Source of the DNA: Escherichia coli
GTDB lineage: Bacteria > Pseudomonadota > Gammaproteobacteria > Enterobacterales > Enterobacteriaceae
Direction: 5' to 3' (one strand)
Length of the DNA stretch: 64,000 nt
NCBI RefSeq assembly: GCF_003334405.1
Contig: NZ_QOWM01000003.1
Below the pieces are notes generated by a model. The model did no database searches. It saw nothing but the letters and a program-made list of their open reading frames with translations, and was not told where the DNA came from. The position numbers and the translations under genes are program-made. Position 1 is the stretch's first letter. The number at the start of each line of letters is the position of its first letter. Below are positions 5,743-49,864 of the stretch, one piece after another.

Positions 5743-5765
5743 AGATTTCTCCTTTTAAAAAAGCA

Positions 5766-6266: not shown

Positions 6267-6274
6267 TGTAAGAC

Positions 6275-6801: not shown

Positions 6802-6872
6802 ACCAAAGCATGACATCTCTGTTTCGCACCGAAGGTGACACTTCTGCTTTGCGTTGACAGGAGAAGCAGGCT

Positions 6873-7496: not shown

Positions 7497-7562
7497 ACTC
7501 ATCTACAATCTTGCGCGGGGCTGAACTCCCGCTGAGTAACACCGTGCCACCGGAGAAAACCG

Positions 7563-7841
7563 ATGGCACGCAACGCAAAATATTACAATTCTGATAATTC
7601 GCCCGTTCTTGCCTGCACGCACGGGCGGTATTCTCACGCATTCAAGTCTGAATGGTTCCAGCACCCTCCATGCACTGCAGAACAGGCCGAATGGCTGATT
7701 CATTCTTACCGCAGGCGCGGGTTCGAGGTTAAGAAAGCTCTCAGTCTCGACTATCGGCACTGGATAATCTCTGTCAGGCTGCCTTATTCCGAACGCCCAC
7801 CACGTGCGTCCCGCACTTTCCAGCAACGGATCTGGAGGTAA
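7563..7841 (+). CDS. hypothetical protein (92 aa) upstream of ydfU
   Basis: ATG with GGAGAA RBS; ends 1 nt before the likely GTG start of ydfU. Confidence 0.5.
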   Translation: MARNAKYYNSDNSPVLACTHGRYSHAFKSEWFQHPPCTAEQAEWLIHSYRRRGFEVKKALSLDYRHWIISVRLPYSERPPRASRTFQQRIWR

Positions 7842-7842
7842 C

Positions 7843-30850: not shown

Positions 30851-31756
30851 TTAGCGGAATTTACGTCGATACTCGCCTGGCGTCATCCCAAAGCGTTGCT
30901 TAAATACCGTTGAAAAATGACTCTGGTCAGAAAATCCCCAATGAAAGCCGATGCCTGCCAGTTTTTCATCATCTGCGGCATGGCGAATCGCATCTGCACA
31001 AAAATCGAGACGACGGTTACGAATATATTGCGCGACTACCAAACCTTTATCGGCAAACATTCGGTACAAACTACGTACTGACATACCTGTCTCTCCGGCT
31101 ATCCACTCCGGGCGTAATATCTCTTCGCGAATATTATCGTCTATCAACGTAACCACTTTTTGAAACTGACGTTCACGACGAGGTTGAACAGATTCCCGCT
31201 GATGAAGTACCGGGCGCAGCAGACACACCATCGCCTGTAGCGCAGCTTCACTTTCTGTTTCAGAAAGTGCCGGATTATTCATGCTCTCCTGTAACAGGCG
31301 ATGACTGAGTTGCACCATGGGTAAGTCAGCGTCCAGTCTTTCTGCGCAGACAGGTTTTTGATGGGGAAAATATTGTTCCAGCAGAGTGCGTGGCAAAAGT
31401 AATGAAATCTGTTTAGAAGACTCCTGCCAGTAAAGCGAACAGGGGCGTGAGGCATCGAGTAACGTAATATCGCCAGCGCCAATCTGCACCTGACGCTCAT
31501 CCTGCTCCATTATTGCCTGACCACTAAGCTGAAAAACGGTGTAAAACCAGGCATCGTCGCTGCCTTTTACTTCCTGCCAGGTGCGGGATAAATTCACCCC
31601 GCTGGTTGTCACGGTACTCAGCTTTAGTCCTTTGGCAAAATGCGTGTCCAGTACACCCGTGTAACGCTCAGTCAGCAGGCGTCCGGTAAAATTTCCGCAT
31701 ACCTGATTGATTTGGGAAAGCCATTGCTGAAACTCATTATCCACTGCGGGGTTCAT
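30851..31756 (-). CDS. feaR: AraC-family activator of tynA/feaB
   Basis: 301 aa with C-terminal AraC-type HTH. Confidence 0.9.
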   Translation of the reverse strand: MNPAVDNEFQQWLSQINQVCGNFTGRLLTERYTGVLDTHFAKGLKLSTVTTSGVNLSRTWQEVKGSDDAWFYTVFQLSGQAIMEQDERQVQIGAGDITLLDASRPCSLYWQESSKQISLLLPRTLLEQYFPHQKPVCAERLDADLPMVQLSHRLLQESMNNPALSETESEAALQAMVCLLRPVLHQRESVQPRRERQFQKVVTLIDDNIREEILRPEWIAGETGMSVRSLYRMFADKGLVVAQYIRNRRLDFCADAIRHAADDEKLAGIGFHWGFSDQSHFSTVFKQRFGMTPGEYRRKFR

Positions 31757-31991
31757 GGCACGTTTTCGCTCTGTGAAATGTATTTTTATTGTTGCATTTG
31801 TGTTGCAATAAACGAAGCTAATGAGCCTGACTATAGGAAATAAGTCTTGTCAGGCATAGAGACATAAGCGGTTATTGTCACGATTTGCGGAGCTTGTCAC
31901 AGCTGACAAAGCGAATGTCACAGCGAAAAAAGTGACTTTTCTTGTCGCTGCGTACACTGAAATCACACTGGGTAAATAATAAGGAAAAGTG

Positions 31992-33491
31992 ATGACAGAG
32001 CCGCATGTAGCAGTATTAAGCCAGGTCCAACAGTTTCTCGATCGTCAACACGGTCTTTATATTGATGGTCGTCCTGGCCCCGCACAAAGTGAAAAACGGT
32101 TGGCGATCTTTGATCCGGCCACCGGGCAAGAAATTGCGTCTACTGCTGATGCCAACGAAGCGGATGTAGATAACGCAGTCATGTCTGCCTGGCGGGCCTT
32201 TGTCTCGCGTCGCTGGGCCGGGCGATTACCCGCAGAGCGTGAACGTATTCTGCTACGTTTTGCTGATCTGGTGGAGCAGCACAGTGAGGAGCTGGCGCAA
32301 CTGGAAACCCTGGAGCAAGGCAAGTCAATTGCCATTTCCCGTGCTTTTGAAGTGGGCTGTACGCTGAACTGGATGCGTTATACCGCCGGGTTAACGACCA
32401 AAATCGCGGGTAAAACGCTGGACTTGTCGATTCCCTTACCCCAGGGGGCGCGTTATCAGGCCTGGACGCGTAAAGAGCCGGTTGGCGTAGTGGCGGGAAT
32501 TGTGCCATGGAACTTTCCGTTGATGATTGGTATGTGGAAGGTGATGCCAGCACTGGCAGCAGGCTGTTCAATCGTGATTAAGCCTTCGGAAACCACGCCA
32601 CTGACGATGTTGCGCGTGGCGGAACTGGCCAGCGAGGCTGGTATCCCTGATGGCGTTTTTAATGTCGTCACCGGGTCAGGTGCTGTATGCGGCGCGGCCC
32701 TGACGTCACATCCTCATGTTGCGAAAATCAGTTTTACCGGTTCAACCGCGACGGGAAAAGGTATTGCCAGAACTGCTGCTGATCACTTAACGCGTGTAAC
32801 GCTGGAACTGGGCGGTAAAAACCCGGCAATTGTATTAAAAGATGCTGATCCGCAATGGGTTATTGAAGGCTTGATGACCGGAAGCTTCCTGAATCAAGGG
32901 CAAGTATGCGCCGCCAGTTCGCGAATTTATATTGAAGCGCCGTTGTTTGACACGCTGGTTAGTGGATTTGAGCAGGCGGTAAAATCGTTGCAAGTGGGAC
33001 CGGGGATGTCACCTGTTGCACAGATTAACCCTTTGGTTTCTCGTGCGCACTGCGACAAAGTGTGTTCATTCCTCGACGATGCGCAGGCACAGCAAGCAGA
33101 GCTGATTCGCGGGTCGAATGGACCAGCCGGAGAGGGGTATTATGTTGCGCCAACGCTGGTGGTAAATCCCGATGCTAAATTGCGCTTAACTCGTGAAGAG
33201 GTGTTTGGTCCGGTGGTAAACCTGGTGCGAGTAGCGGATGGAGAAGAGGCGTTACAACTGGCAAACGACACGGAATATGGCTTAACTGCCAGTGTCTGGA
33301 CGCAAAATCTCTCCCAGGCTCTGGAATATAGCGATCGCTTACAGGCAGGGACGGTGTGGGTAAACAGCCATACCTTAATTGACGCTAACTTACCGTTTGG
33401 TGGGATGAAGCAGTCAGGAACGGGCCGTGATTTTGGCCCCGACTGGCTGGACGGTTGGTGTGAAACTAAGTCGGTGTGTGTACGGTATTAA
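31992..33491 (+). CDS. feaB: phenylacetaldehyde dehydrogenase
   Basis: 499 aa aldehyde dehydrogenase with catalytic Cys region (GQVCAA) and ELGGKNP motif. Confidence 0.95.
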
Positions 33492-33548
33492 TCTGGTTCG
33501 CTCATAAGTAAAAAACGGCACCTGGTGCCGTTTTTTTGTCTGAAACAA

Positions 33549-35822
33549 TCACTTATCTTTCTTCAGCGCCCCTAGCGTTGGCGTTTCGTCAAAGAAGTTC
33601 CATGGTTTCAGCAGAGTATGTACCCATTCGGTCGGCATAATCGGCCACTCTTCGGCGCGGGCCACATGTGTGGTGCCGGTGGTCATCCAGACAACGGCGT
33701 CGGTGTTGTCCAGCGACTCGTTATCCTTACTGTATTGTCCAAGACCGGTGTCATGAGTAGAACGGTTCGGATATTTGCCTTCCGGGAAACGCTCGCCAGG
33801 ATGATAACGCGTTACCCAGAGCTGCTTGTCCATAAAGCTTAAACGATGATAGATCCACTCGTCCGGCGCGAACTGGGCACCTTTTGCTACCGGGTGAGTA
33901 CCACCTGCATAAGGAATAATTTGATAGGAAACCGGATTGCCCATGCGGTTCTCTTTGTTCGGGTTACTCAACAGACGAATCGTGCCCGGATCAAATTTCT
34001 GTGCGGCATCCTGTTCATTGCCGATGTTGTACTGATTAACTTGCATGGTACTGGTGCGTGGGCCACCGGCAGTATTCGGTTTTACCACTGGGTCCATCGC
34101 CACCGGGCTGTTATTCTCGCCATCTACATCCAGATCGAGGAGGAAATTATAAATATGTTGGTGTGTAGTACCCACGATATTGTGATCGATAAGCGTGCCG
34201 TAGCGCGTGTCATCTTTCGCCGTCTCATCGTGCATGGTTTTCGCTTTAACACCTTTCACCGCTTCGATGCCCGTAGCACCGGCATCGATGCCAATAGTGC
34301 CGTTTTCATGGAAGATCCAGTCAAAAATGTAGTCATAGTTACCCACTGTACTGATCCAGCGCACCACTAACTCCCGGCGTTCGGTACTGACGTTGGGCTG
34401 GCCCATTTCCTGATGCTTATACTCCGGCCCGGCATAACGTTCAAATACCGCGATAGCGCGAGGGATCTCCATCGGCACGCCAGTGTAGTCGGCGATGGTT
34501 TCATTAAGGAGCACTGCGTTAGACGGGGCATCTTTACCACGAGCAATTGGTGAGGTTAGCGTGCCCATACCGTAGTCACCAGAGTCCAGATACGCTTTAA
34601 AGTACCAGCCAATATCAGGATCACCGTAAGGCACAATCATGCCGCCGAGAGAACCTTCGTACATGACTTTGCGTTTGGTGCCATTGTCGTTATAAGTCAC
34701 GGTGGAGATCATCGGCCCGACGCGAGAGTTCATGCTGAGGTGAAAATCCCAGTTCCGCCAGTGAATCATATCGCCAGTAATGGTGTAATTTTTACCTTCA
34801 GGCTCAATGATTTGCATAGGCTTAACTGCCGGAGCAACGCGGTCACGGCCATCAAATGGGCGTGCGGTCATTGGCACCGGAACTACCGGACCTTCTTCAA
34901 TCTTAACGATTTTTTTCTGTTCTAAATCAACGACCGCCACCAGGTTTTCGATGGGATGTGCCCAGTAGTTGCCATCACCGACATCAAGATAGCTGATGAC
35001 TTTGAGCAACCGGGCATCTTGTTTCAGGCCATCTTTACCATCGAAATAACCTACGGTCAGCGGCGTGGTAATCACTTTTTTCGCATCAGTAATACCGCGT
35101 TTCTTCACGGCAGCGGCAAATTCTTCACTGTTGTTAATAATGTTCTGCACACTGGCGAAATCATCCAGCAACACCATACCGTGGGCGTCTTTAATGGGTT
35201 GCCAGGAGAGCAGTTTGTTGTTTTGCAGATCCACCACCGCTTCGATGATATGTTTGCCGTCGAGCATAATGACGTCGGCTTTGCGCGGCTGGTCAACCGG
35301 TTTGTTTTCCAGCGCAAACGCCCAGACAGCTTCTTTATCTGGCGGTAGCAGGGAGATCTCAGTAAAACGGGTATTGGGTTTGAAGTCCGCGGAAGCTTTA
35401 ACAATTTCAACGGCCTGTTTAATTTCGTCCGCAGTTAGCGCATTAAGTGGGTGAGGGCGCTTTTCTACCTGAAAGGTTTGATCCAGCCCGGACTGGAAAA
35501 CATCGTTAATAAAGGTGTCAGAAACCCAGGCTTTATTGTCTTTCATCACTACCGGTACTTGCAGTGCCAGAGGCTGACCATTAACAATTGCTGTTTGCGC
35601 ACCAGGCTTCACTTTCACGTACGCGCCATCTTTAATCAGGGTAAAGAGCTGGGCGTAGTCGTCCCACTGCACATCGGCACCAAATTCTTTAAGCGTTTTA
35701 TCCATTGGCACCATATGCGCTTCACCACCGTGGGCAAATACCGGCGCTTGCCAGGCGAAACTTAAGGCGACTGCCAACGCCAGGGTTGTTTTACGGGCAG
35801 AATACAGAGAGGGGCTTCCCAT
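33549..35822 (-). CDS. tynA: periplasmic copper/topaquinone amine oxidase
   Basis: 757 aa from MGSPSLYSARK signal peptide; copper amine oxidase family. Confidence 0.95.
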   Translation of the reverse strand: MGSPSLYSARKTTLALAVALSFAWQAPVFAHGGEAHMVPMDKTLKEFGADVQWDDYAQLFTLIKDGAYVKVKPGAQTAIVNGQPLALQVPVVMKDNKAWVSDTFINDVFQSGLDQTFQVEKRPHPLNALTADEIKQAVEIVKASADFKPNTRFTEISLLPPDKEAVWAFALENKPVDQPRKADVIMLDGKHIIEAVVDLQNNKLLSWQPIKDAHGMVLLDDFASVQNIINNSEEFAAAVKKRGITDAKKVITTPLTVGYFDGKDGLKQDARLLKVISYLDVGDGNYWAHPIENLVAVVDLEQKKIVKIEEGPVVPVPMTARPFDGRDRVAPAVKPMQIIEPEGKNYTITGDMIHWRNWDFHLSMNSRVGPMISTVTYNDNGTKRKVMYEGSLGGMIVPYGDPDIGWYFKAYLDSGDYGMGTLTSPIARGKDAPSNAVLLNETIADYTGVPMEIPRAIAVFERYAGPEYKHQEMGQPNVSTERRELVVRWISTVGNYDYIFDWIFHENGTIGIDAGATGIEAVKGVKAKTMHDETAKDDTRYGTLIDHNIVGTTHQHIYNFLLDLDVDGENNSPVAMDPVVKPNTAGGPRTSTMQVNQYNIGNEQDAAQKFDPGTIRLLSNPNKENRMGNPVSYQIIPYAGGTHPVAKGAQFAPDEWIYHRLSFMDKQLWVTRYHPGERFPEGKYPNRSTHDTGLGQYSKDNESLDNTDAVVWMTTGTTHVARAEEWPIMPTEWVHTLLKPWNFFDETPTLGALKKDK

Positions 35823-36027
35823 TATTAACCTCGTCAGATGTTGTGTTCTTGTTAGCAACCGCGCTCTGTGGGCGGTTTAGTCAGGTTCACATTATCAGTA
35901 CTGATGCAAAGGGGATTGCCTGCACCTGCCAGGTTGTTTGGCAGGTGTGCCAGCTTTTCATACAGTGGATGCCCTGAAAATAGATGTACACATCATGCAT
36001 AATGTGACAACGTCACAAAACTTAGTG

Positions 36028-36059
36028 AAATAAAAGGGCAACTATTCGCCGTTGCCCTT
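36028..36059 (-). terminator. stem-loop terminator downstream of paaZ
   Basis: AAGGGCAAC...GTTGCCCTT inverted repeat with T-rich tail on the minus strand. Confidence 0.5.
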
Positions 36060-36069
36060 CATTCACCGA

Positions 36070-38115
36070 TTAATCGACAAAATCACCGTGCTGCCTGGCC
36101 ACCAGCGTCAGAATTGAATACAGCGCCACCGGGGTTTGATGCTGATTGAATACCTCTACAGCCCATTCCACCACACCTGTTGGTTTTTCTTCTGCGCTAC
36201 GCTGTTTTTTCAGCGTCTTGCGCTTACAGGTGAGACGCACCTGGATGGTATCGCCTGGCTTTACGGGTTCGATAAAACGCAAGCTTTCCAGCCCGTAGTT
36301 AGCAATGACCGGACCGACACCGGCATCGACAAACAGACCCGCAGCCGCAGAAAGCACAAAATACCCATGCACCACCCGCTCACCGAAAATAGATTCGGCA
36401 GCAGCAATCTTATCCATATGTGCATAGAAATGATCGCCGCTGAGGCAAGCAAAGTTAACAATATCGGCCTCTGTCATTGTGCGGCGGGGAGTCAACAGGC
36501 TGTCGCCTGGTTGTAGCTCCTCAAAATATTTGCGGAACGGATGAATACGATCTTCTTCGACTTTCGCACCGCGCACCCACTGTTTACTGATAGCGGCAAG
36601 CATCGTCGGACTACCCTGAACAGCGGTTCGCTGCATGTAATGTTTCACCGCTCGTAAACCGCCTAATTCTTCACCGCCTCCTGCGCGACCAGGCCCACCA
36701 TGTACCAGTTGTGGCAGTGGGGAGCCATGCCCGGTGGATTCTTTTGCCGACTCTTCATTGAGGATCTGAATTCGCCCATGCGTACGTGCCGCGTCGGCAA
36801 TAAACTGACGCGCAATTTGCGGATCAGCCGTCACCAGCGTTCCCGCAAGGCTACCGCCGCCTGCACAAGCCAGTTGCAGAGCATGTCGCTGGTTTTGTGC
36901 TGGCATCAGCGTTGCGACAGGGCCAAAGGCTTCTGTTGCATGTACCGCCGGTGTTTCATCCGGCTGCGGACAGTACAATAAGGTTGGCGGGAAGAAGGCA
37001 CCCGCAGCAGATAAATCCGCCTGACCACCGAGGCGAATCTCGCATCCTGCAGCCAGCAATATGTTCACTTTTTCCTGCACATCGGCACGCTGCTCAGCAT
37101 TTACCAGTGCGCCCATTTTCACGCCTTCCTGAGCAGGATCACCGACCACGACTTTCTGTAATCGCGCAACCAGAGCATCACTGACAGCATTAACCAATGC
37201 CTGCGGCACAATAATCCGCCGGATTGCCGTACATTTTTGCCCGGCTTTTGTGGTCATCTCACGCACAACTTCACGAATAAACAGCGCAAACTCCGGTTGA
37301 TCCGGGGTGACATCTTCGCCCAGTACGCAGCAGTTCAGGGAATCAGCTTCCATAGTGAAGGGGATAGATTTGGCGACGATATTTGGCTGAACTCGCAGCA
37401 TCTGTCCGGTCGCCGCTGACCCCGTGAAAGTCACCACATCCTGGCTGTCCAGATGATCCAACAAGTCGCCAGCACTACCGCAGATCAGACTAATTGCGCC
37501 TTCGGGAACAAGACCACTATCGACAATTGATTTCACCATCGCCTGAGTCAGTTGGGCCGTCGCGGTAGCTGGTTTGATGATGGCTGGCATTCCGCCCAGC
37601 CACGTTGGTGCCAGCTTTTCCAGCATTCCCCAGCAGGGGAAGTTAAAGGCGTTAATATGCACTGCCACGCCTGACTTTGAGGTCAGTAAATGGCGCGCGG
37701 CAAATCCACCTTCTTTCGATAAGGGGATCAATTCATCTTCCGGCCACAGCGTATCGTCAGGCAGCTCCCGGCTACCGAGGCTGGCGTAAGTAAATAACGT
37801 CCCAATGCCACCTTCAATATCAACCCAACTGTCTGCCCGCGTTGCGCCTGTTTGCGCAGAAAGAGCATAGAAACGCTCTTTTTCACTCAGCAGATGTTTA
37901 GCGACCGCTTTAAGCATCGCCGCACGTTCGATAAAGGTCATAGCGCGAAGGGCGGGGGCACCTTTTTCAATGGCAAACTGGCGGGCAGCCGCCATATCAA
38001 GACCTTCACTGGTCACTTCCCATAACGCCTCGCCGCTAATAGCGTGGTGAATCAAACGGCTACGGCCCCGGCCAGACTGCCAGGTACCGGATAAGAAACT
38101 GGCTAACTGCTGCAT
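36070..38115 (-). CDS. paaZ: bifunctional oxepin-CoA hydrolase / 3-oxo-5,6-dehydrosuberyl-CoA semialdehyde dehydrogenase
   Basis: 681 aa; N-terminal aldehyde dehydrogenase plus C-terminal hot-dog hydratase domain; divergent from paaA. Confidence 0.95.
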
Positions 38116-38399
38116 CGCTACTCTCCAGATGTTTCACATTTCTGTTGCTAATAGTTAAATCGCGAATCATAAAAAGCAAGGGATCTTTTAACGAAATGTT
38201 AACTATGCGATCTGTATAGCAACTGCGGAAAACATTAATGCACTGATAAACAATGATTTATAAAAATAGGGTGCGAAATCCGTCACAGTTCAAACATACA
38301 AAATTTGTGATTTTACTTAACTATTGTGTAACTTTCATAAAACAATGTGATTCGTGTTTTTAATTAATTCACGAAAACTGGAATCGTAAAGGTGATGAC

Positions 38400-39329
38400 G
38401 TGACCCAAGAAGAACGCTTTGAGCAACGGATAGCCCAGGAAACGGCTATCGAGCCACAGGACTGGATGCCCGATGCTTACCGAAAGACATTGATCCGCCA
38501 GATTGGGCAGCATGCGCACTCCGAGATTGTTGGTATGTTGCCTGAAGGTAACTGGATCACTCGCGCACCAACCTTGCGGCGTAAAGCCATTCTGTTGGCC
38601 AAAGTGCAGGATGAAGCCGGTCATGGTCTGTATCTCTATAGCGCCGCCGAAACACTGGGCTGCGCCAGAGAAGACATCTACCAAAAAATGCTCGACGGAC
38701 GGATGAAATATTCCTCCATCTTTAATTATCCGACATTGAGTTGGGCTGATATCGGTGTTATCGGCTGGCTGGTGGATGGCGCAGCGATCGTCAATCAGGT
38801 GGCGTTATGCCGCACTTCTTATGGCCCGTATGCCAGAGCAATGGTGAAAATCTGCAAAGAAGAGAGTTTTCACCAGCGTCAGGGGTTTGAAGCCTGCATG
38901 GCACTGGCGCAGGGCAGCGAAGCTCAAAAGCAGATGTTGCAAGACGCCATTAACCGTTTCTGGTGGCCAGCCTTAATGATGTTCGGGCCAAACGATGATA
39001 ACTCGCCAAACAGCGCCAGAAGTCTCACCTGGAAAATCAAACGTTTCACCAACGACGAACTCCGCCAGCGTTTCGTGGATAACACCGTTCCACAGGTTGA
39101 AATGCTCGGTATGACCGTTCCTGACCCGGATCTGCATTTTGACACTGAAAGCGGTCACTACCGCTTTGGTGAGATCGACTGGCAGGAGTTTAACGAAGTA
39201 ATTAACGGTCGCGGAATTTGTAATCAGGAGAGGCTCGACGCCAAACGTAAAGCCTGGGAAGAAGGTACCTGGGTACGGGAAGCAGCGCTGGCCCATGCAC
39301 AAAAACAACATGCCCGTAAGGTCGCATAA
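38400..39329 (+). CDS. paaA: 1,2-phenylacetyl-CoA epoxidase subunit A
   Basis: 309 aa, GTG start; first gene of a colinear paaABCDEFGHIJK operon. Confidence 0.95.
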
Positions 39330-39340
39330 GGAGATTCAAA

Positions 39341-39628
39341 ATGAGTAATGTTTACTGGCCGTTATACGAAGTTTTCGTGCGTGGCAAACAGGGCTTATCA
39401 CACCGCCATGTTGGCAGTTTACATGCTGCCGATGAGCGGATGGCACTGGAAAATGCCCGTGATGCTTACACCCGTCGTAGCGAAGGATGTTCAATTTGGG
39501 TGGTGAAGGCGAGTGAAATTGTTGCCTCGCAACCGGAAGAACGCGGTGAATTTTTTGATCCGGCTGAAAGCAAGGTCTATCGCCATCCAACGTTTTACAC
39601 CATCCCTGATGGCATTGAGCACATGTGA
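39341..39628 (+). CDS. paaB: 1,2-phenylacetyl-CoA epoxidase subunit B
   Basis: 95 aa; operon position. Confidence 0.95.
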   Translation: MSNVYWPLYEVFVRGKQGLSHRHVGSLHAADERMALENARDAYTRRSEGCSIWVVKASEIVASQPEERGEFFDPAESKVYRHPTFYTIPDGIEHM

Positions 39629-39636
39629 GGTCGGAA

Positions 39637-40383
39637 ATGAATCAGTTAACGGCTTACACCTTGCGCCTGGGCGATAACTGCCTGGTGCTCTCCCAGCGGT
39701 TGGGTGAATGGTGCGGTCACGCACCGGAACTGGAAATCGATCTCGCACTGGCAAACATTGGCCTCGATTTATTAGGTCAGGCACGCAACTTCTTATCGTA
39801 TGCCGCTGAATTAGCGGGAGAAGGCGATGAAGATACCCTGGCCTTCACCCGAGACGAGCGCCAGTTCAGCAACTTATTGTTGGTTGAACAACCAAACGGC
39901 AATTTTGCCGACACCATTGCACGCCAGTATTTCATCGATGCATGGCATGTGGCGCTCTTTACCCGTCTGATGGAAAGCCGTGATCCGCAACTGGCGGCGA
40001 TTTCTGCCAAAGCAATTAAAGAAGCGCGCTATCACCTGCGTTTTAGTCGTGGCTGGCTGGAGCGACTGGGCAATGGTACTGACGTATCAGGGCAAAAGAT
40101 GCAGCAGGCCATCAACAAGTTGTGGCGTTTTACCGCCGAACTGTTCGATGCCGACGAGATTGATATTGCACTGAGTGAAGAGGGTATTGCGGTTGATCCA
40201 CGCACTTTACGCGCAGCGTGGGAAGCCGAAGTTTTTGCCGGGATCAACGAAGCCACATTGAACGTACCGCAAGAGCAGGCGTATCGCACTGGCGGTAAAA
40301 AAGGACTGCATACCGAACACCTTGGACCCATGCTGGCAGAAATGCAGTATCTCCAGCGTGTCTTGCCCGGTCAGCAATGGTAA
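39637..40383 (+). CDS. paaC: 1,2-phenylacetyl-CoA epoxidase subunit C
   Basis: 248 aa from Met MNQLTAY; operon position. Confidence 0.9.
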   Translation: MNQLTAYTLRLGDNCLVLSQRLGEWCGHAPELEIDLALANIGLDLLGQARNFLSYAAELAGEGDEDTLAFTRDERQFSNLLLVEQPNGNFADTIARQYFIDAWHVALFTRLMESRDPQLAAISAKAIKEARYHLRFSRGWLERLGNGTDVSGQKMQQAINKLWRFTAELFDADEIDIALSEEGIAVDPRTLRAAWEAEVFAGINEATLNVPQEQAYRTGGKKGLHTEHLGPMLAEMQYLQRVLPGQQW

Positions 40384-40397
40384 CAGAGGAGATGGGT

Positions 40398-40895
40398 ATG
40401 CAACGTCTGGCCACCATTGCACCGCCACAGGTTCATGAGATATGGGCGCTACTCAGCCAGATCCCGGACCCGGAGATCCCGGTGCTGACCATTACTGATT
40501 TAGGCATGGTGCGTAATGTGACACAGATGGGAGAAGGATGGGTGATCGGCTTTACGCCGACATATTCCGGTTGTCCGGCAACGGAACATTTGATTGGCGC
40601 GATACGTGAGGCAATGACAACCAACGGGTTTACCCCCGTTCAGGTTGTGCTGCGACTCGACCCGGCATGGACCACCGACTGGATGACCCCCGATGCCCGT
40701 GAGCGTCTGCGAGAGTATGGCATTAGCCCGCCCGCCGGACACAGTTGCCATGCCCATTTGCCGCCAGAAGTACGTTGCCCGCGCTGCGCCAGCGTCCATA
40801 CCACACTTATCAGTGAATTTGGTTCCACGGCCTGCAAAGCATTGTACCGCTGCGATAGTTGCCGCGAACCTTTCGATTATTTCAAATGTATTTGA
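40398..40895 (+). CDS. paaD: phenylacetate degradation protein PaaD
   Basis: 165 aa from Met MQRLATIAPP; operon position. Confidence 0.9.
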   Translation: MQRLATIAPPQVHEIWALLSQIPDPEIPVLTITDLGMVRNVTQMGEGWVIGFTPTYSGCPATEHLIGAIREAMTTNGFTPVQVVLRLDPAWTTDWMTPDARERLREYGISPPAGHSCHAHLPPEVRCPRCASVHTTLISEFGSTACKALYRCDSCREPFDYFKCI

Positions 40896-40902
40896 GGATG
40901 CC

Positions 40903-41973
40903 ATGACAACGTTTCATTCCTTAACAGTGGCAAAAGTCGAGTCGGAAACCCGTGATGCGGTGACCATTACCTTTGCGGTGCCCCAGCCTTTGCAGGAGGC
41001 GTATCGCTTTCGCCCCGGTCAACATTTGACCTTAAAAGCCAGCTTTGATGGTGAAGAATTACGCCGTTGTTACTCCATTTGCCGCAGCTATCTGCCTGGC
41101 GAAATTAGTGTGGCGGTGAAAGCCATTGAAGGCGGACGTTTCTCCCGCTATGCCCGCGAACACATCCGCCAGGGTATGACGCTGGAGGTCATGGTGCCGC
41201 AGGGGCATTTCGGCTATCAGCCGCAGGCCGAACGCCAGGGGCGCTATCTGGCAATTGCAGCAGGATCAGGTATTACGCCAATGCTGGCGATTATCGCCAC
41301 CACTTTACAAACCGAGCCTGAAAGTCAGTTCACCCTGATCTACGGTAACCGTACCAGCCAGAGCATGATGTTTCGCCAGGCACTGGCAGACCTGAAAGAC
41401 AAATATCCTCAGCGTTTACAGTTGTTGTGCATTTTCAGTCAGGAAACCCTCGACAGCGATCTGCTTCACGGGCGTATTGACGGTGAAAAATTACAGTCAC
41501 TTGGGGCCTCGCTCATTAATTTTCGTCTTTATGATGAGGCATTTATTTGTGGTCCGGCGGCGATGATGGATGACGCGGAAACCGCCTTAAAAGCACTGGG
41601 AATGCCAGATAAAACCATTCATCTGGAGCGGTTTAATACGCCTGGCACGCGCGTCAAACGTAGCGTTAACGTGCAAAGTGACGGACAAAAAGTGACTGTA
41701 CGTCAGGATGGGCGGGATCGGGAAATCGTGCTTAATGCCGACGATGAAAGCATTCTCGATGCGGCATTGCGCCAGGGGGCGGATCTGCCCTATGCCTGCA
41801 AAGGCGGCGTCTGTGCGACCTGCAAATGCAAAGTGCTGCGTGGCAAAGTGGCGATGGAAACCAATTACAGTCTGGAACCGGATGAACTGGCCGCAGGTTA
41901 TGTGTTGAGTTGCCAGGCACTGCCGCTGACCAGCGATGTGGTGGTTGACTTTGACGCGAAGGGGATGGCATGA
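40903..41973 (+). CDS. paaE: 1,2-phenylacetyl-CoA epoxidase reductase subunit
   Basis: 356 aa from MTTFHSLTVAK; C-terminal 2Fe-2S ferredoxin Cys motif (CKGGVCATCKC). ORF track starts 70 codons upstream inside paaD. Confidence 0.9.
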   Translation: MTTFHSLTVAKVESETRDAVTITFAVPQPLQEAYRFRPGQHLTLKASFDGEELRRCYSICRSYLPGEISVAVKAIEGGRFSRYAREHIRQGMTLEVMVPQGHFGYQPQAERQGRYLAIAAGSGITPMLAIIATTLQTEPESQFTLIYGNRTSQSMMFRQALADLKDKYPQRLQLLCIFSQETLDSDLLHGRIDGEKLQSLGASLINFRLYDEAFICGPAAMMDDAETALKALGMPDKTIHLERFNTPGTRVKRSVNVQSDGQKVTVRQDGRDREIVLNADDESILDAALRQGADLPYACKGGVCATCKCKVLRGKVAMETNYSLEPDELAAGYVLSCQALPLTSDVVVDFDAKGMA

Positions 41974-42737
41974 GCGAACTGATCGTCAGCCGTCAGCAAC
42001 GAGTATTGTTGCTGACCCTTAACCGTCCCGCCGCACGTAATGCGCTAAATAATGCCCTGCTGATGCAACTGGTAAATGAACTGGAAGCTGCGGCTACCGA
42101 TACCAGCATTTCGGTCTGTGTGATTACCGGTAATGCACGCTTTTTTGCCGCTGGGGCCGATCTCAACGAAATGGCAGAAAAAGATCTCGCGGCCACCTTA
42201 AACGATACACGTCCGCAGCTATGGGCGCGATTGCAGGCCTTTAATAAACCACTTATCGCAGCCGTCAATGGTTACGCGCTTGGGGCGGGTTGCGAACTGG
42301 CATTGTTGTGCGATGTGGTGGTTGCCGGAGAGAACGCGCGTTTTGGGTTGCCGGAAATCACTCTCGGCATCATGCCTGGCGCAGGCGGAACGCAACGTTT
42401 AATCCGTAGTGTCGGTAAATCGTTAGCCAGCAAAATGGTGCTGAGCGGAGAAAGTATCACCGCTCAGCAAGCACAGCAGGCCGGGCTGGTTAGCGACGTC
42501 TTCCCCAGCGATTTAACCCTCGAATACGCCTTACAGCTGGCATCGAAAATGGCACGTCACTCGCCGCTGGCCTTACAAGCGGCAAAGCAAGCGCTGCGCC
42601 AGTCGCAGGAAGTGGCTTTGCAAGCCGGACTTGCCCAGGAGCGACAGTTATTCACCTTGCTGGCGGCAACAGAAGATCGTCATGAAGGCATCTCCGCTTT
42701 CTTACAAAAACGCACGCCCGACTTTAAAGGACGCTAA
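41970..42737 (+). CDS. paaF: 2,3-dehydroadipyl-CoA hydratase
   Basis: 255 aa enoyl-CoA hydratase/crotonase fold. Confidence 0.95.
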   Translation: MSELIVSRQQRVLLLTLNRPAARNALNNALLMQLVNELEAAATDTSISVCVITGNARFFAAGADLNEMAEKDLAATLNDTRPQLWARLQAFNKPLIAAVNGYALGAGCELALLCDVVVAGENARFGLPEITLGIMPGAGGTQRLIRSVGKSLASKMVLSGESITAQQAQQAGLVSDVFPSDLTLEYALQLASKMARHSPLALQAAKQALRQSQEVALQAGLAQERQLFTLLAATEDRHEGISAFLQKRTPDFKGR

Positions 42738-43525
42738 TGATGGAATTCATCCTCAGTCATGTAGAAAAGGGCGTGATGACACTAACGCTCAACCGCCCGG
42801 AACGCCTGAACAGTTTTAATGATGAGATGCACGCACAACTGGCAGAGTGCCTGAAACAGGTCGAGCGCGACGACACTATCCGTTGCCTGTTACTTACAGG
42901 TGCCGGGCGCGGATTTTGTGCTGGTCAGGATCTTAACGATCGTAACGTTGATCCCACAGGCCCCGCACCGGATTTAGGGATGTCAGTTGAACGTTTCTAT
43001 AACCCACTGGTACGTCGCCTGGCAAAACTGCCAAAACCGGTGATCTGTGCAGTCAATGGCGTGGCGGCAGGGGCAGGCGCAACACTGGCACTGGGGGGCG
43101 ACATCGTTATTGCTGCCCGTTCAGCAAAATTCGTCATGGCGTTTAGTAAGTTAGGCTTAATACCCGATTGCGGTGGAACCTGGTTACTGCCACGCGTTGC
43201 CGGACGAGCGCGCGCCATGGGGCTGGCACTGCTGGGGAATCAACTGAGTGCTGAACAGGCGCACGAATGGGGGATGATCTGGCAGGTTGTTGATGATGAA
43301 ACGCTGGCAGATACCGCGCAACAGCTGGCACGGCATCTGGCGACACAACCGACATTTGGTCTTGGACTTATCAAGCAAGCGATAAATAGCGCTGAAACCA
43401 ATACGCTCGATACGCAACTGGATCTGGAACGTGACTATCAGCGACTTGCCGGACGGAGCGCAGATTATCGTGAAGGTGTCAGTGCGTTCCTGGCTAAACG
43501 CTCACCGCAGTTCACGGGGAAATAG
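42737..43525 (+). CDS. paaG: 1,2-epoxyphenylacetyl-CoA isomerase
   Basis: 262 aa crotonase-family. Confidence 0.95.
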   Translation: MMEFILSHVEKGVMTLTLNRPERLNSFNDEMHAQLAECLKQVERDDTIRCLLLTGAGRGFCAGQDLNDRNVDPTGPAPDLGMSVERFYNPLVRRLAKLPKPVICAVNGVAAGAGATLALGGDIVIAARSAKFVMAFSKLGLIPDCGGTWLLPRVAGRARAMGLALLGNQLSAEQAHEWGMIWQVVDDETLADTAQQLARHLATQPTFGLGLIKQAINSAETNTLDTQLDLERDYQRLAGRSADYREGVSAFLAKRSPQFTGK

Positions 43526-43526
43526 C

Positions 43527-44954
43527 ATGATGATAAATGTGCAAACTGTGGCAGTGATTGGGAGCGGCACCATGGGGGCAGGCATTGCTGAAGTTGCTGC
43601 CAGTCATGGACACCAGGTTTTACTGTATGACATTTCTGCTGAAGCGCTGACCCGCGCAATCGACGGGATACACGCGCGGCTAAATTCACGCGTGACGCGG
43701 GGAAAACTGACTGCTGAAACCTGTGAACGCACATTGAAACGCCTGATCCCGGTGACCGATATTCACGCGCTGGCAGCTGCGGACCTGGTCATTGAAGCGG
43801 CGTCTGAACGTCTGGAAGTCAAAAAAGCGCTCTTTGCACAGCTGGCGGAAGTTTGCCCGCCACAAACGCTATTGACCACTAACACTTCGTCAATCTCTAT
43901 AACCGCGATTGCTGCGGAGATAAAAAATCCTGAACGTGTTGCGGGGCTGCATTTTTTTAACCCGGCACCGGTGATGAAGTTGGTGGAGGTGGTCAGTGGG
44001 CTGGCAACGGCGGCGGAAGTTGTTGAGCAGTTGTGTGAACTAACGTTGAGTTGGGGTAAGCAGCCTGTGCGCTGTCATTCGACTCCTGGATTTATCGTTA
44101 ACCGTGTTGCGCGTCCTTATTATTCCGAGGCCTGGCGGGCACTGGAAGAGCAGGTTGCTGCACCAGAAGTGATTGACGCTGCACTTCGCGATGGCGCTGG
44201 TTTCCCGATGGGGCCGCTGGAATTAACCGATCTGATTGGTCAGGACGTCAATTTTGCTGTCACCTGTTCGGTGTTTAACGCTTTCTGGCAGGAGCGTCGT
44301 TTTTTACCTTCGCTGGTGCAACAGGAACTGGTGATTGGTGGACGGTTGGGCAAGAAAAGTGGGCTGGGCGTGTACGACTGGCGCGCGGAACGTGAGGCAG
44401 TTGTTGGCCTGGAAGCGGTAAGCGACAGTTTTAGCCCAATGAAAGTAGAAAAGAAAAGTGACGGTGTCACGGAAATTGACGATGTTTTATTGATTGAGAC
44501 ACAAGGCGAGACGGCACAGGCGCTGGCAATACGACTGGCACGCCCGGTGGTAGTGATCGATAAAATGGCGGGCAAGGTGGTGACCATTGCTGCTGCAGCG
44601 GTGAACCCGGACTCAGCGACCCGCAAGGCCATTTATTACCTGCAACAGCAGGGCAAAACAGTGCTGCAAATTGCAGATTACCCAGGAATGCTGATTTGGC
44701 GAACGGTAGCAATGATCATCAATGAAGCCCTTGATGCGCTTCAAAAAGGCGTGGCCTCTGAACAGGATATCGATACCGCCATGCGTCTTGGGGTGAATTA
44801 TCCATATGGCCCACTTGCCTGGGGAGCGCAACTTGGCTGGCAGCGAATATTAAGGCTCCTTGAAAATCTACAGCATCACTATGGCGAAGAACGCTATCGC
44901 CCATGTTCATTGCTGCGCCAACGGGCGCTTCTGGAGAGCGGTTATGAGTCATAA
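43527..44954 (+). CDS. paaH: 3-hydroxyadipyl-CoA dehydrogenase
   Basis: 475 aa from MMINVQTVAVIGSGTMG (NAD-binding GxGxxG); ORF track starts upstream inside paaG. Confidence 0.9.
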   Translation: MMINVQTVAVIGSGTMGAGIAEVAASHGHQVLLYDISAEALTRAIDGIHARLNSRVTRGKLTAETCERTLKRLIPVTDIHALAAADLVIEAASERLEVKKALFAQLAEVCPPQTLLTTNTSSISITAIAAEIKNPERVAGLHFFNPAPVMKLVEVVSGLATAAEVVEQLCELTLSWGKQPVRCHSTPGFIVNRVARPYYSEAWRALEEQVAAPEVIDAALRDGAGFPMGPLELTDLIGQDVNFAVTCSVFNAFWQERRFLPSLVQQELVIGGRLGKKSGLGVYDWRAEREAVVGLEAVSDSFSPMKVEKKSDGVTEIDDVLLIETQGETAQALAIRLARPVVVIDKMAGKVVTIAAAAVNPDSATRKAIYYLQQQGKTVLQIADYPGMLIWRTVAMIINEALDALQKGVASEQDIDTAMRLGVNYPYGPLAWGAQLGWQRILRLLENLQHHYGEERYRPCSLLRQRALLESGYES

Positions 44955-45366
44955 GGCCTGGCAAAATGCCCATGCAATGTATGAGAACGATGCCTGCGCC
45001 AAAGCGCTTGGCATCGACATTATCTCAATGGATGAAGGCTTTGCTGTAGTGACCATGACCGTCACTGCACAAATGCTTAACGGTCATCAAAGTTGCCACG
45101 GCGGGCAGCTATTTTCACTGGCTGATACTGCCTTTGCCTACGCCTGCAATAGCCAGGGGCTGGCAGCCGTCGCTTCTGCCTGCACGATTGATTTTTTGCG
45201 TCCAGGCTTTGCCGGAGACACCTTAACTGCTACTGCGCAGGTACGTCATCAGGGCAAGCAAACCGGTGTTTACGACATCGAAATTGTTAACCAACAACAA
45301 AAAACGGTTGCGCTGTTTCGCGGTAAATCTCACCGCATCGGCGGCACCATTACAGGAGAAGCCTGA
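44944..45366 (+). CDS. paaI: acyl-CoA thioesterase (hot-dog fold)
   Basis: 140 aa from MSHKAWQ; overlaps paaH end by 11 nt. Confidence 0.9.
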   Translation: MSHKAWQNAHAMYENDACAKALGIDIISMDEGFAVVTMTVTAQMLNGHQSCHGGQLFSLADTAFAYACNSQGLAAVASACTIDFLRPGFAGDTLTATAQVRHQGKQTGVYDIEIVNQQQKTVALFRGKSHRIGGTITGEA

Positions 45367-46571
45367 TGCGTGAAGCCTTTATTTGTGACGGAATTCGTAC
45401 GCCAATTGGTCGCTACGGCGGGGCATTATCAAGTGTTCGGGCTGATGATCTGGCTGCTATCCCTTTGCGGGAACTGCTGGTGCGAAACCCGCGTCTCGAT
45501 GCGGAGTGTATCGATGATGTGATCCTCGGCTGTGCTAATCAGGCGGGAGAAGATAACCGTAACGTAGCCCGGATGGCGACTTTACTGGCGGGGCTGCCGC
45601 AGAGTGTTTCCGGCACAACCATTAACCGCTTGTGTGGTTCCGGGCTGGACGCACTGGGGTTTGCCGCACGGGCGATTAAAGCGGGCGATGGCGATTTGCT
45701 GATCGCCGGTGGCGTGGAGTCAATGTCACGGGCACCGTTTGTTATGGGCAAGGCAGCCAGTGCATTTTCTCGTCAGGCTGAGATGTTCGATACCACTATT
45801 GGCTGGCGATTTGTGAACCCGCTCATGGCTCAGCAATTTGGAACTGACAGCATGCCGGAAACGGCAGAGAATGTAGCTGAACTGTTAAAAATCTCACGAG
45901 AAGATCAAGATAGTTTTGCGCTACGCAGTCAGCAACGTACGGCAAAAGCGCAATCCTCAGGCATTCTGGCTGAGGAGATTGTTCCGGTTGTGTTGAAAAA
46001 CAAGAAAGGTGTTGTAACAGAAATACAACATGATGAGCATCTGCGCCCGGAAACGACGCTGGAACAGTTACGTGGGTTAAAAGCACCATTTCGTGCCAAT
46101 GGGGTGATTACCGCAGGCAATGCTTCCGGGGTGAATGACGGAGCCGCTGCGTTGATTATTGCCAGTGAACAGATGGCAGCAGCGCAAGGACTGACACCGC
46201 GGGCGCGTATCGTAGCCATGGCAACCGCCGGGGTGGAACCGCGCCTGATGGGGCTTGGTCCGGTGCCTGCAACTCGCCGGGTGCTGGAACGCGCAGGGCT
46301 GAGTATTCACGATATGGACGTGATTGAACTGAACGAAGCGTTCGCGGCCCAGGCGTTGGGTGTACTACGCGAATTGGGGCTGCCTGATGATGCCCCACAT
46401 GTTAACCCCAACGGAGGCGCTATCGCCTTAGGCCATCCGTTGGGAATGAGTGGTGCCCGCCTGGCACTGGCTGCCAGCCATGAGCTGCATCGGCGTAACG
46501 GTCGTTACGCATTGTGCACCATGTGCATCGGTGTCGGTCAGGGCATCGCCATGATTCTGGAGCGTGTTTGA
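45366..46571 (+). CDS. paaJ: 3-oxoadipyl-CoA / 3-oxo-5,6-dehydrosuberyl-CoA thiolase
   Basis: 401 aa thiolase with active-site Cys (NRLCGSG). Confidence 0.95.
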
Positions 46572-46597
46572 GCATATCAACCTGCGAGTACCCTACA

Positions 46598-47911
46598 ATG
46601 ATAACCAATACAAAGCTTGACCCGATTGAAACCGCGTCTGTTGATGAGTTACAGGCGTTGCAAACACAGCGTCTGAAATGGACGCTCAAACACGCGTATG
46701 AAAATGTGCCGATGTATCGGCGCAAATTCGACGCAGCAGGCGTACATCCTGATGATTTCAGGGAACTTTCAGACCTGCGTAAATTTCCCTGTACCACCAA
46801 ACAGGATCTGCGCGACAACTATCCCTTTGACACCTTTGCCGTGCCAATGGAACAAGTGGTGCGCATTCATGCTTCTTCGGGAACCACAGGTAAACCGACA
46901 GTTGTCGGCTATACGCAAAACGATATTGATAACTGGGCCAATATTGTAGCGCGTTCTTTGCGTGCGGCAGGGGGCTCGCCCAAAGACAAAATTCATGTTG
47001 CCTATGGTTACGGCCTGTTTACTGGTGGGCTGGGTGCGCACTATGGTGCCGAACGTCTGGGCGCTACGGTGATCCCGATGTCTGGCGGGCAGACGGAAAA
47101 ACAAGCGCAACTGATCCGTGATTTTCAACCAGATATGATCATGGTTACGCCATCTTATTGCCTTAACCTGATTGAAGAGCTGGAGCGGCAGTTGGGCGGT
47201 GATGCCAGCGGTTGCTCGCTGCGGGTTGGAGTATTTGGTGCTGAGCCGTGGACACAGGCCATGCGTAAAGAGATTGAGCGTCGCCTGGGGATCACCGCAC
47301 TGGATATTTATGGCCTGTCAGAAGTGATGGGGCCGGGGGTGGCGATGGAGTGTCTGGAAACTACCGACGGCCCAACCATTTGGGAAGATCATTTCTATCC
47401 TGAAATTGTTAATCCTCATGACGGCACACCGCTTGCCGATGGTGAACATGGCGAACTGTTATTCACCACGCTGACCAAAGAAGCATTGCCGGTCATTCGT
47501 TACCGCACGCGTGATTTAACCCGACTGTTACCAGGAACGGCGCGGACTATGCGCCGCATGGATCGCATCAGCGGACGCAGCGATGACATGTTGATTATTC
47601 GCGGTGTAAATGTCTTTCCGTCACAACTGGAAGAAGAGATTGTCAAATTCGAACATTTATCGCCGCATTACCAACTGGAGGTGAACCGCCGGGGGCATCT
47701 TGATTCACTTTCTGTGAAAGTGGAGTTGAAAGAAAGTAGCCTGACATTGACGCATGAGCAGCGTTGCCAGGTATGCCACCAGCTGCGCCATCGGATTAAG
47801 TCGATGGTGGGGATCTCTACCGATGTGATGATCGTTAACTGTGGCAGTATCCCGCGTTCAGAAGGCAAGGCGTGTCGGGTGTTTGATCTGCGCAATATTG
47901 TTGGTGCCTGA
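46598..47911 (+). CDS. paaK: phenylacetate-CoA ligase
   Basis: 437 aa from MITNTKLDP; adenylate-forming enzyme family. Confidence 0.9.
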   Translation: MITNTKLDPIETASVDELQALQTQRLKWTLKHAYENVPMYRRKFDAAGVHPDDFRELSDLRKFPCTTKQDLRDNYPFDTFAVPMEQVVRIHASSGTTGKPTVVGYTQNDIDNWANIVARSLRAAGGSPKDKIHVAYGYGLFTGGLGAHYGAERLGATVIPMSGGQTEKQAQLIRDFQPDMIMVTPSYCLNLIEELERQLGGDASGCSLRVGVFGAEPWTQAMRKEIERRLGITALDIYGLSEVMGPGVAMECLETTDGPTIWEDHFYPEIVNPHDGTPLADGEHGELLFTTLTKEALPVIRYRTRDLTRLLPGTARTMRRMDRISGRSDDMLIIRGVNVFPSQLEEEIVKFEHLSPHYQLEVNRRGHLDSLSVKVELKESSLTLTHEQRCQVCHQLRHRIKSMVGISTDVMIVNCGSIPRSEGKACRVFDLRNIVGA

Positions 47912-48011
47912 CGTATCGTCTGGCCCTGGTGGGGTAAAGCGCCAGGGCCAGAAGTCGATACGACCTGTGCTATGATTCATAAATCACAACAATAACAACA
48001 GACTGAAGCGA

Positions 48012-48962
48012 ATGAGTAAACTTGATACTTTTATCCAACATGCTGTAAACGCTGTTCCGGTCAGTGGCACATCTTTGATCTCCTCTCTGTATGGTGATTC
48101 GCTTTCCCATCGTGGTGGTGAAATCTGGTTGGGTAGTCTGGCTGCTTTGCTGGAAGGGCTGGGATTTGGTGAGCGTTTCGTGCGCACCGCTTTGTTTCGT
48201 CTTAATAAAGAAGGCTGGCTGGATGTTTCCCGCATCGGGCGACGCAGTTTCTATAGCCTCAGTGATAAAGGCTTGCGCCTGACGCGACGGGCAGAAAGTA
48301 AAATTTATCGCGCAGAGCAACCTGCATGGGATGGTAAATGGCTCCTGTTGCTCTCGGAAGGTTTAGATAAATCAACGCTGGCTGATGTCAAAAAGCAGTT
48401 GATCTGGCAAGGTTTTGGCGCACTGGCACCCAGCCTGATGGCATCGCCGTCGCAAAAACTGGCCGATGTACAGACACTTTTGCATGAAGCGGGTGTGGCG
48501 GATAACGTGATTTGTTTTGAAGCGCAAATACCACTGGCGCTTTCTCGCGCAGCACTGCGTGCCAGAGTAGAAGAGTGCTGGCATTTAACTGAACAAAATG
48601 CCATGTACGAAACCTTTATTCAGTCATTCCGCCCGCTGGTGCCGCTTTTAAAAGAGGCGGCAGACGAGTTAACCCCGGAGCGGGCATTTCATATTCAGCT
48701 TTTACTGATCCATTTTTATCGCCGTGTCGTCCTTAAAGACCCATTGTTGCCGGAGGAGTTGCTTCCGGCACACTGGGCAGGGCATACGGCGCGTCAGCTG
48801 TGTATCAACATTTATCAGCGCGTAGCGCCTGCTGCTTTAGCGTTCGTTAGTGAAAAAGGTGAAACCTCGGTCGGTGAACTGCCTGCGCCGGGAAGCCTGT
48901 ATTTTCAACGTTTTGGCGGCTTGAATATTGAACAGGAGGCGTTATGCCAATTTATCAGATAG
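48012..48962 (+). CDS. paaX: paa operon transcriptional repressor
   Basis: 316 aa; operon position. Confidence 0.9.
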
Positions 48963-49534
48963 ACGGTCTGACTCCGGTTGTGCCAGAAGAGAGTTTTGTC
49001 CATCCGACAGCGGTATTGATCGGCGATGTTATTCTCGGCAAGGGCGTTTACGTTGGGCCAAATGCCAGCCTGCGTGGCGATTTTGGTCGTATCGTGGTGA
49101 AAGATGGCGCGAACATTCAGGATAATTGCGTTATGCACGGTTTTCCCGAGCAGGATACTGTTGTAGGAGAAGATGGACATATTGGTCATAGCGCTATCCT
49201 TCACGGCTGCATTATCCGCCGCAATGCATTAGTGGGAATGAACGCGGTAGTGATGGACGGTGCGGTGATTGGCGAGAACAGCATTGTTGGTGCATCCGCA
49301 TTTGTGAAAGCCAAAGCAGAAATGCCAGCTAATTACCTGATTGTCGGCAGCCCGGCGAAAGCGATTCGTGAACTCAGTGAGCAGGAGTTGGCATGGAAAA
49401 AGCAGGGTACGCATGAGTACCAGGTGCTGGTGACACGCTGTAAGCAGACGTTACATCAAGTCGAGCCATTGCGGGAAATTGAACCTGGCAGGAAACGCCT
49501 GGTATTTGATGAGAATCTGCGACCGAAACAGTAA
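48944..49534 (+). CDS. paaY: hexapeptide-repeat thioesterase PaaY
   Basis: 196 aa with left-handed beta-helix hexapeptide repeats; overlaps paaX by 19 nt. Confidence 0.9.
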
Positions 49535-49567
49535 CAGATGTAAAATTATTTTGTCCCTTTAATTATA

Positions 49568-49604
49568 AAGCAGAGTTATGTTTAAGCTCTGCTTTATTTA
49601 TTTG
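49568..49604 (+). terminator. rho-independent terminator after paaY
   Basis: AAAGCAGAG...CTCTGCTTT stem followed by ATTTATTT. Confidence 0.65.
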
Positions 49605-49864
49605 AGTATTAATTCATACCGTTTTTTCATCATATAATTATTTATAATGAGAATGTGGTTTTAATTTGTAATTTATATTATATACACAATTTATATATTT
49701 TATGGTCTTTTTTTATTCACCTGAATTATAATTGTGAATTATAGGAAAGTATGTTTGATTAGATAATAATCTACTGGCAATATTGGATGTCTTCTATGTT
49801 TTAAATAACTAATTGGTCGGGTTAGTGCATCCGGCTTTCTTTATATTCGCCAGAAGGATTTATT

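Follow-up and report, generated by a model that had tools for sequence, protein, structure and literature searches.

An Escherichia coli feaR-feaB-tynA-paa locus close to that of K-12, with a lineage-specific allele of the amine oxidase gene tynA

The DNA analysed here is a stretch of 64,000 nucleotides from Escherichia coli (contig NZ_QOWM01000003.1 of assembly GCF_003334405.1), referred to below as the window and numbered from its first letter. Positions 30851-49534 carry genes for the conversion of 2-phenylethylamine and phenylacetate, and we conclude, with a probability of about 95%, that this region is the chromosomal E. coli locus feaR-feaB-tynA-paaZ-paaABCDEFGHIJK-paaXY of a strain close to K-12. 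The region begins at the final base of the feaR stop codon (minus strand) and ends at that of the paaY stop codon, exactly as a first-pass annotation made by a model from the letters of the DNA had placed it, and its 17 genes (feaR, feaB, tynA, paaZ, paaABCDEFGHIJK and paaXY) follow one another without interruption. The identity, completeness and order of the genes, as well as the presence of the regulatory motifs, were observed directly. The MG1655 version has been described as a seventeen-gene locus, feaRB-tynA-paaZABCDEFGHIJKXY (PMC4951805).

Positions 30851-49534 were compared by megablast with 5426 complete E. coli genomes. The best match was strain ML35, with 4 mismatches in 18,684 bases, and the segment 30680-49864 differed from K-12 MG1655p at 7 of 19,185 positions. 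In the RefSeq annotation, the matching DNA of both ML35 and K-12 carries feaR, feaB, tynA, paaZ, paaA-K, paaX and paaY; the gene coordinates given in Table 1 are those of the ML35 annotation carried over to window positions. Gene order, strands, intergenic lengths and regulatory motifs are the same as in K-12 MG1655, as are the starts and stops of all 17 reading frames, and 13 of the 17 proteins are identical to their K-12 counterparts, PaaZ and all six proteins from PaaF to PaaK among them. What differs from K-12 MG1655 is FeaR I136V (shared with ML35), TynA R561L and L573P, PaaD Q86R and two single-nucleotide polymorphisms (SNPs) in the paaZ-paaA gap, at 38180 and 38251.

Sixteen proteins, i.e., FeaR, TynA and all 14 Paa proteins, passed NCBIfam equivalog models above the curated cut-offs and over the full length; in the case of PaaZ, model TIGR02278 spans residues 4-674 and thus both domains. 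FeaB is a full-length aldehyde dehydrogenase whose best NCBIfam match is the StyD phenylacetaldehyde dehydrogenase model (613 bits, under the cut-off of 850), and a FeaB-specific model does not exist in NCBIfam. Nothing argues against the identity of the locus.

The list of open reading frames was examined for positions 29000-51500. Each of the 17 reading frames has a length that is a multiple of three and contains no internal stops. The first-pass annotation had described all 14 paa genes as intact and joined by tight overlaps. The former holds in that the frames are complete and covered by full-length models, although open frames do not guarantee function, given that TynA of this lineage carries R561L. 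The latter is true of 5 of the 12 same-strand junctions (paaE/F, 4 nucleotides (nt); F/G, 1 nt; H/I, 11 nt; I/J, 1 nt; X/Y, 19 nt), whereas six others are gaps of 1-26 nt, and paaK and paaX are separated by 100 nt that include a separate promoter region. Because internal stops, frameshifts and partial deletions are known from this place in other E. coli (O145:H28; PMC4951805), one could suppose that our strain, too, holds only a decaying remnant of the cluster in which pseudogenes are hidden. The 17 complete frames, with the starts and stops of K-12 and full-length model coverage, refute this at the sequence level, and we regard its probability as negligible.

The regulatory DNA agrees with the identity of the genes. 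The operator consensus of the repressor PaaX, reportedly WWTRTGATTCGYGWT according to Kim et al. 2004, was searched in its exact form throughout the window. Only two matches were found (0.00 expected), both of them in the gap between the divergent paaZ and paaA, and each faces one of the two operons. When two mismatches were allowed, there were 5 matches against 3.9 expected, which is the chance level, and only the exact form is informative. The TGATTC core has been named as the PaaX binding sequence, with TGATTC(N27)GAATCA as the quoted form; promoters Pz, Pa and Px are repressed by PaaX with phenylacetyl-coenzyme A (CoA) as the inducer, and autorepression at Px has been reported (PMC9493321). 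A TGATTC core at 47973, in the paaK-paaX gap, is consistent with such autorepression. A search for TGATTC-N27-GAATCA with at most two mismatches was weak overall (7 matches against 3.3 expected).

With the tandem motif TGNCA-N8-AAA-N5-TGNCA, only two matches were obtained in the whole window, against 0.09 expected. They are located upstream of feaB and tynA, each in the orientation of its own gene, and make up candidate sites for the activator FeaR. A separate search for repeats retrieved the same direct repeats, spaced by 21 base pairs (bp), upstream of feaB (as a 20-nt repeat) and tynA. Another form of the motif, TGTCAC-N8-AAA, had no match in the region; the looser tandem form is the specific one. 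FeaR is known to regulate tynA and to activate feaB, and both paaABCDEFGHIJK and paaZ are regulated by CRP (PMC4640556); a CRP-like candidate site lies between Pz and Pa. Compared with shuffled sequence, generic scans returned 16 promoter-like sigma-70 sites (19.7 expected) and 29 terminator-like sites (23.5 expected), so that neither scan exceeded the shuffled level; they served only to label hairpins adjoining stop codons. No Rfam family was found in positions 29000-51000 at gathering thresholds.

As can be seen, the annotated genomes, the family models, the motif searches and the literature all agree with the view of the first-pass annotation that tynA and feaB, under FeaR control, sit beside a complete paa pathway. 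The regulatory logic proposed there, with regulators belonging to the pathway itself, agrees as well: paaX is present, with PaaX operator matches at paaZ and paaA. Every part needed for the mechanism leading from phenylethylamine through phenylacetate is present in the standard arrangement.

The enzyme steps are established knowledge (mainly Teufel et al. 2010 PNAS; Ferrandez et al. 1998/2000; Hanlon et al. 1997). Applied to our strain, they predict that TynA would be exported to the periplasm and would convert 2-phenylethylamine to phenylacetaldehyde, ammonia and hydrogen peroxide, with FeaB then oxidising phenylacetaldehyde to phenylacetate; FeaR would activate feaB and tynA through the tandem sites ahead of each. 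Phenylacetate would be turned into phenylacetyl-CoA by PaaK, and PaaABC(D)E would epoxidise the ring. PaaG would convert the epoxide to oxepin-CoA, PaaZ would open the ring and oxidise the resulting aldehyde, and PaaJ, PaaG, PaaF, PaaH and, once again, PaaJ would complete the route, giving acetyl-CoA as well as succinyl-CoA. The thioesterases PaaI and PaaY would rescue CoA from dead-end products, and PaaX would repress Pz, Pa and Px until released by phenylacetyl-CoA. A review summary of the enzyme steps and of the three PaaX-controlled promoters agrees with this scheme (PMC9493321). Deletion of tynA has been shown to lower the expression of feaB and paa during growth with phenylethylamine (PMC4640556). 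We infer that the Paa, Fea and Tyn proteins function like their K-12 counterparts, TynA being in some doubt because of R561L.

Some caveats apply to the function and regulation of the locus. The FeaR-site motif is reportedly that of Zeng & Spiro 2013, and the assignments of CRP, IHF and terminator sites are consensus matches only, to be read as candidates. The others concern TynA. In an alignment of 126 diverse copper amine oxidases, obtained from a search of 1.8 billion representative proteins, the column of residue 561 holds Arg in 116 homologues (92%) and never Leu; the column of residue 573 is variable, and Pro occurs there in 0 of the 126.

The changes in TynA are among the four positions at which 30851-49534 differs from its best matches (34105, 34141, 38251 and 40654), the window being identical to no complete genome. 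Three of these positions are coding and all three alter an amino acid: L573P (34105) and R561L (34141) in TynA, and Q86R (40654) in PaaD. Translation thus ruled out the possibility that the private SNPs are synonymous. Sequencing errors were ruled out by exact look-up: at least four National Center for Biotechnology Information (NCBI) assemblies contain both the exact TynA and the exact PaaD sequence, with TynA on 10 contigs (OWD73621.1 and HAH2861250.1 are examples from draft assemblies). Because the same sequences are found in several public assemblies, the TynA and PaaD variants are real alleles. Neither of the TynA SNPs, at 34105 and 34141, was seen in any of the 3182 complete E. coli genomes in which this segment of tynA is present. 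PaaD Q86R is probably harmless, since position 86 is variable among four solved DUF59 homologues. Valine at position 136 of FeaR, in place of the K-12 isoleucine, is a common allele present on at least 1000 contigs.

Residue 561 is one of only 46 of the 757 TynA columns that are at least 90% conserved, and it lies within the motif H554-x-H556-x4-R561-L-D563-x-D565-V-D-G, which holds two of the three copper-ligand histidines. The catalytic residues themselves are present: the NYDY motif (N495, Y496, Y498) with the topaquinone precursor Tyr496, the copper ligands His554, His556 and His719, and Asp413. The 30-residue signal peptide, read directly from the sequence, agrees with the alignment of PDB chains of the E. 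coli amine oxidase to residues 31-757.

It is conceivable, then, that the lower (paa) pathway works while the upper one is crippled, R561L and L573P inactivating or destabilising the oxidase; such a strain would grow on phenylacetate and little or not at all on phenylethylamine, and would be at an early stage of the decay that other members of the species show. This would refine the identification of the locus. Besides the near-invariance of R561 within the copper-ligand motif, the lack of L561 and P573 in the homologues and the rarity of an allele that is nevertheless real, it is favoured by the point-mutation decay of the locus in O145:H28 and by the report of tynA-positive strains without activity, according to which the presence of tynA is no guarantee of a functional enzyme (PMC4640556). 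However, conservation is only suggestive, as 10 of the 126 homologues have H, K, Y, E, Q or a gap at position 561, and the upper pathway is otherwise unaltered, regulatory sites included. We consider this scenario tentative and somewhat less likely than a working upper pathway; a clear defect of this lineage's amine oxidase has a chance of about one in three. Normal growth is expected on phenylacetate, while growth on phenylethylamine may be impaired because TynA carries R561L and L573P. The strain is accordingly predicted to use phenylacetate, and the corresponding prediction for phenylethylamine needs a caveat because of R561L. The broader proposal, that in a small natural lineage represented by a handful of drafts the TynA allele abolishes or alters activity and so uncouples phenylethylamine entry from a perfect phenylacetate pathway, seems to us possible but rather unlikely.

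The first-pass annotation had also called the region an island. At least 80% of the whole region was found in 3097 of the 5426 complete genomes, and 1232 gave no match at all; when the parts were considered separately, feaR-feaB-tynA was at least 80% present in 3238 and paaZ-paaK in 3097. This partial distribution would be explained if the locus were a horizontally acquired genomic island inserted between core genes, and it has indeed been described as a region of genomic heterogeneity, with partial deletions, between core genes (PMC4951805); three or four copies are located on plasmids. O157:H7 has been reported as tynA-negative (PMC4640556). Yet the GC content is 0.50-0.55 across the genes, which is typical of E. 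coli and the same as in the flanking core genes. The locus is bordered by ydbL on one side and by a 330-nt gap before ydbA on the other, and no integrase, insertion sequence (IS) element or mobility gene was found at these borders in the window, K-12 or ML35; transfer RNA genes are absent from the entire 64-kb window.

Further evidence comes from the examined genomes that lack the cluster, which retain truncated gene ends, the signature of deletion from a full locus. In EC488, a 3' fragment of feaR is joined to a 3' fragment of paaX (window 31058|48807), and in Rb-23 the retained piece of feaR is longer and runs into the 3' half of paaY (31102|49194). In Ec-RL2-1X, an IS3 element takes the place of 35502-56179 (breakpoint 35501|56180). 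Strain 16003 of O145:H28 has lost 42705-47655, in the paaF-paaK region (breakpoint 42704|47656); in addition, its feaR and feaB are interrupted by internal stops, and its paaC by a frameshift. Since the breakpoints differ between genomes, with an overlap of 3-4 nt at the three junctions without an IS element, these are independent deletions and not excisions of one element. Other E. coli have thus lost the locus by at least four independent routes that left truncated feaR, paaX, paaY or tynA fragments or pseudogenes. No clean empty site was seen among the locus-negative genomes examined, a sample that did not include the 1232 genomes without any match. Because locus-negative genomes keep truncated remnants, we attribute the presence/absence polymorphism to repeated deletion from an ancestral locus. 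Acquisition as an island is very improbable, this reading being already largely refuted within E. coli, and the word island, insofar as it implies a mobile element gained by horizontal transfer, is misleading.

The paa cluster and the PaaX regulon of E. coli W were reportedly described by Ferrandez et al. 1998/2000 and Galan et al. 2004. Likened by description, as summarised in PMC9493321, that cluster has the same units (paaZ, paaA-K and paaXY), the same control by PaaX through TGATTC-type operators and the same inducer, phenylacetyl-CoA. A difference is that in E. coli W the penicillin acylase gene pac, absent from the window, is under PaaX control as well. In Pseudomonas putida and other Proteobacteria, paa clusters share the enzyme set and, in Gammaproteobacteria, regulation by PaaX and PaaY (PMC13186573, PMC2653477). 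They differ in gene order, and it is the E. coli arrangement that has the module of amine oxidase, aldehyde dehydrogenase and FeaR adjoining paa; tynA and feaB are not mentioned in PMC13186573.

Table 1. Genes and candidate regulatory elements of the locus (window positions; aa, amino acids).
Feature	Position	Strand	Evidence
feaR, AraC-family activator, 301 aa	30851-31756	-	NCBIfam NF007243, 505 bits vs cut-off 199, full length; RefSeq
Candidate tandem FeaR-type site upstream of feaB, TGTCA-N8-AAA twice, starts 21 bp apart	31895-31931	+	Pattern match 31895-31920
feaB, NAD-dependent phenylacetaldehyde dehydrogenase, 499 aa	31992-33491	+	Identical to K-12 FeaB, WP_000138615.1
tynA, periplasmic copper/topaquinone primary-amine oxidase, 757 aa precursor	33549-35822	-	NF011285, 1626 bits vs cut-off 1278, full length
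Candidate tandem FeaR-type site upstream of tynA, TGGCA-N8-AAA-N5-TGGCA	35927-35952	-	Pattern match
Hairpin then T-run directly after paaZ stop; probable paaZ intrinsic terminator	36034-36059	-	9-nt perfectly complementary arms; terminator-like site in the generic scan; consensus match only
paaZ, bifunctional oxepin-CoA hydrolase and 3-oxo-5,6-dehydrosuberyl-CoA semialdehyde dehydrogenase, 681 aa	36070-38115	-	TIGR02278, 1210 bits vs 563
Putative PaaX operator at Pz, TTTATGATTCGCGAT	38159-38173	-	Exact WWTRTGATTCGYGWT match
CRP-like candidate site TGCGAAATCCGTCACA between Pz and Pa	38272-38287		Consensus scan, 1 mismatch
Putative PaaX operator at Pa, AATGTGATTCGTGTT	38344-38386	+	Exact match 38344-38358; extends to TGATTC-N27-GAATCg
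paaA, phenylacetyl-CoA 1,2-epoxidase set	38400-39329	+	TIGR02156 above cut-off, full length
paaB, phenylacetyl-CoA 1,2-epoxidase set	39341-39628	+	TIGR02157 above cut-off, full length
paaC, phenylacetyl-CoA 1,2-epoxidase set	39637-40383	+	TIGR02158 above cut-off, full length
paaD, epoxidase accessory set	40398-40895	+	TIGR02159 above cut-off, full length
paaE, phenylacetyl-CoA 1,2-epoxidase set	40903-41973	+	TIGR02160 above cut-off, full length
paaF, hydratase	41970-42737	+	NF007239 above cut-off, full length
paaG, isomerase	42737-43525	+	TIGR02280 above cut-off, full length
paaH, dehydrogenase	43527-44954	+	TIGR02279 above cut-off, full length
paaI, thioesterase	44944-45366	+	TIGR02286 above cut-off, full length
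paaJ, thiolase	45366-46571	+	TIGR02430 above cut-off, full length
paaK, phenylacetate-CoA ligase	46598-47911	+	TIGR02155, 790 bits vs cut-off 646, full length
Perfect 11-bp GC-rich hairpin directly after paaK, ahead of the paaX promoter region, without T-run	47919-47952	+	Inverted repeat, 100% complementary arms
TGATTC PaaX core in paaK-paaX gap, Px promoter region	47973-47978	+	Sequence match
paaX, GntR-type repressor	48012-48962	+	TIGR02277, 411 bits vs 265; identical to K-12
paaY, thioesterase	48944-49534	+	TIGR02287, 378 bits vs 320; identical to K-12
13-bp hairpin then T-rich tail after paaY; probable paaXY terminator	49565-49597	+	Consensus match

Outside the locus, the autotransporter gene ydbA, downstream of paaY (49865-55633, plus strand), is a single uninterrupted frame of 1922 amino acids in the window. 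K-12 has the gene split by IS2 and IS30, ML35 has it split by an element of the IS3 family, and MEI4BO-21, the closest complete genome, has a premature stop in it (C to T at 50492). Internal repeats of ca. 770 nt in ydbA were seen as multiple BLAST matches to 50519-51288. For an open reading frame of 21 amino acids at 49638-49703 (minus strand), which the annotations of K-12, ML35 and MEI4BO-21 include (WP_010723099.1), a private SNP at 49701 turns the ATG start into ATA in the window. On the other side of the locus, the core genes nifJ, ydbJ, hslJ, ldhA, ydbH, ynbE and ydbL lie between feaR and a prophage-like stretch: positions 1-19241 match lambdoid prophage genes (ydfU, a ydfT-like antiterminator and an exonuclease), with IS30, IS600 and ISNCY transposases in the genomes that match them, and positions 1-23000 are at least 80% covered by only 156 of the 5426 genomes. 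Further differences from the closest genomes were seen at 55188 (ydbA A1525V, part-2 numbering), 59534 (ynbA D98E) and 23706 (nifJ, A to T relative to ML35). Most coding differences from the closest complete genomes alter the amino acid, the sole synonymous one (ldhA, 26993) being shared with another strain. They look like very recent, largely unfiltered mutation, but are too few for a test.

Published work already covers the pathway with its enzymes and regulators, and also its patchy distribution in E. coli; the first-pass annotation was right to call this known biology. The only additions made here are the corrections concerning the words island and overlaps and the lineage-specific TynA allele; their discovery value is small, and their practical value lies in annotation. 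As the deletion scars illustrate, acquisition need not lie behind the variability of a catabolic locus, which can be ancestral and lost again and again. If the TynA allele does uncouple phenylethylamine entry from phenylacetate degradation, it could be a first step of the decay that has removed the locus, wholly or partly, from ca. 40% of complete E. coli genomes.

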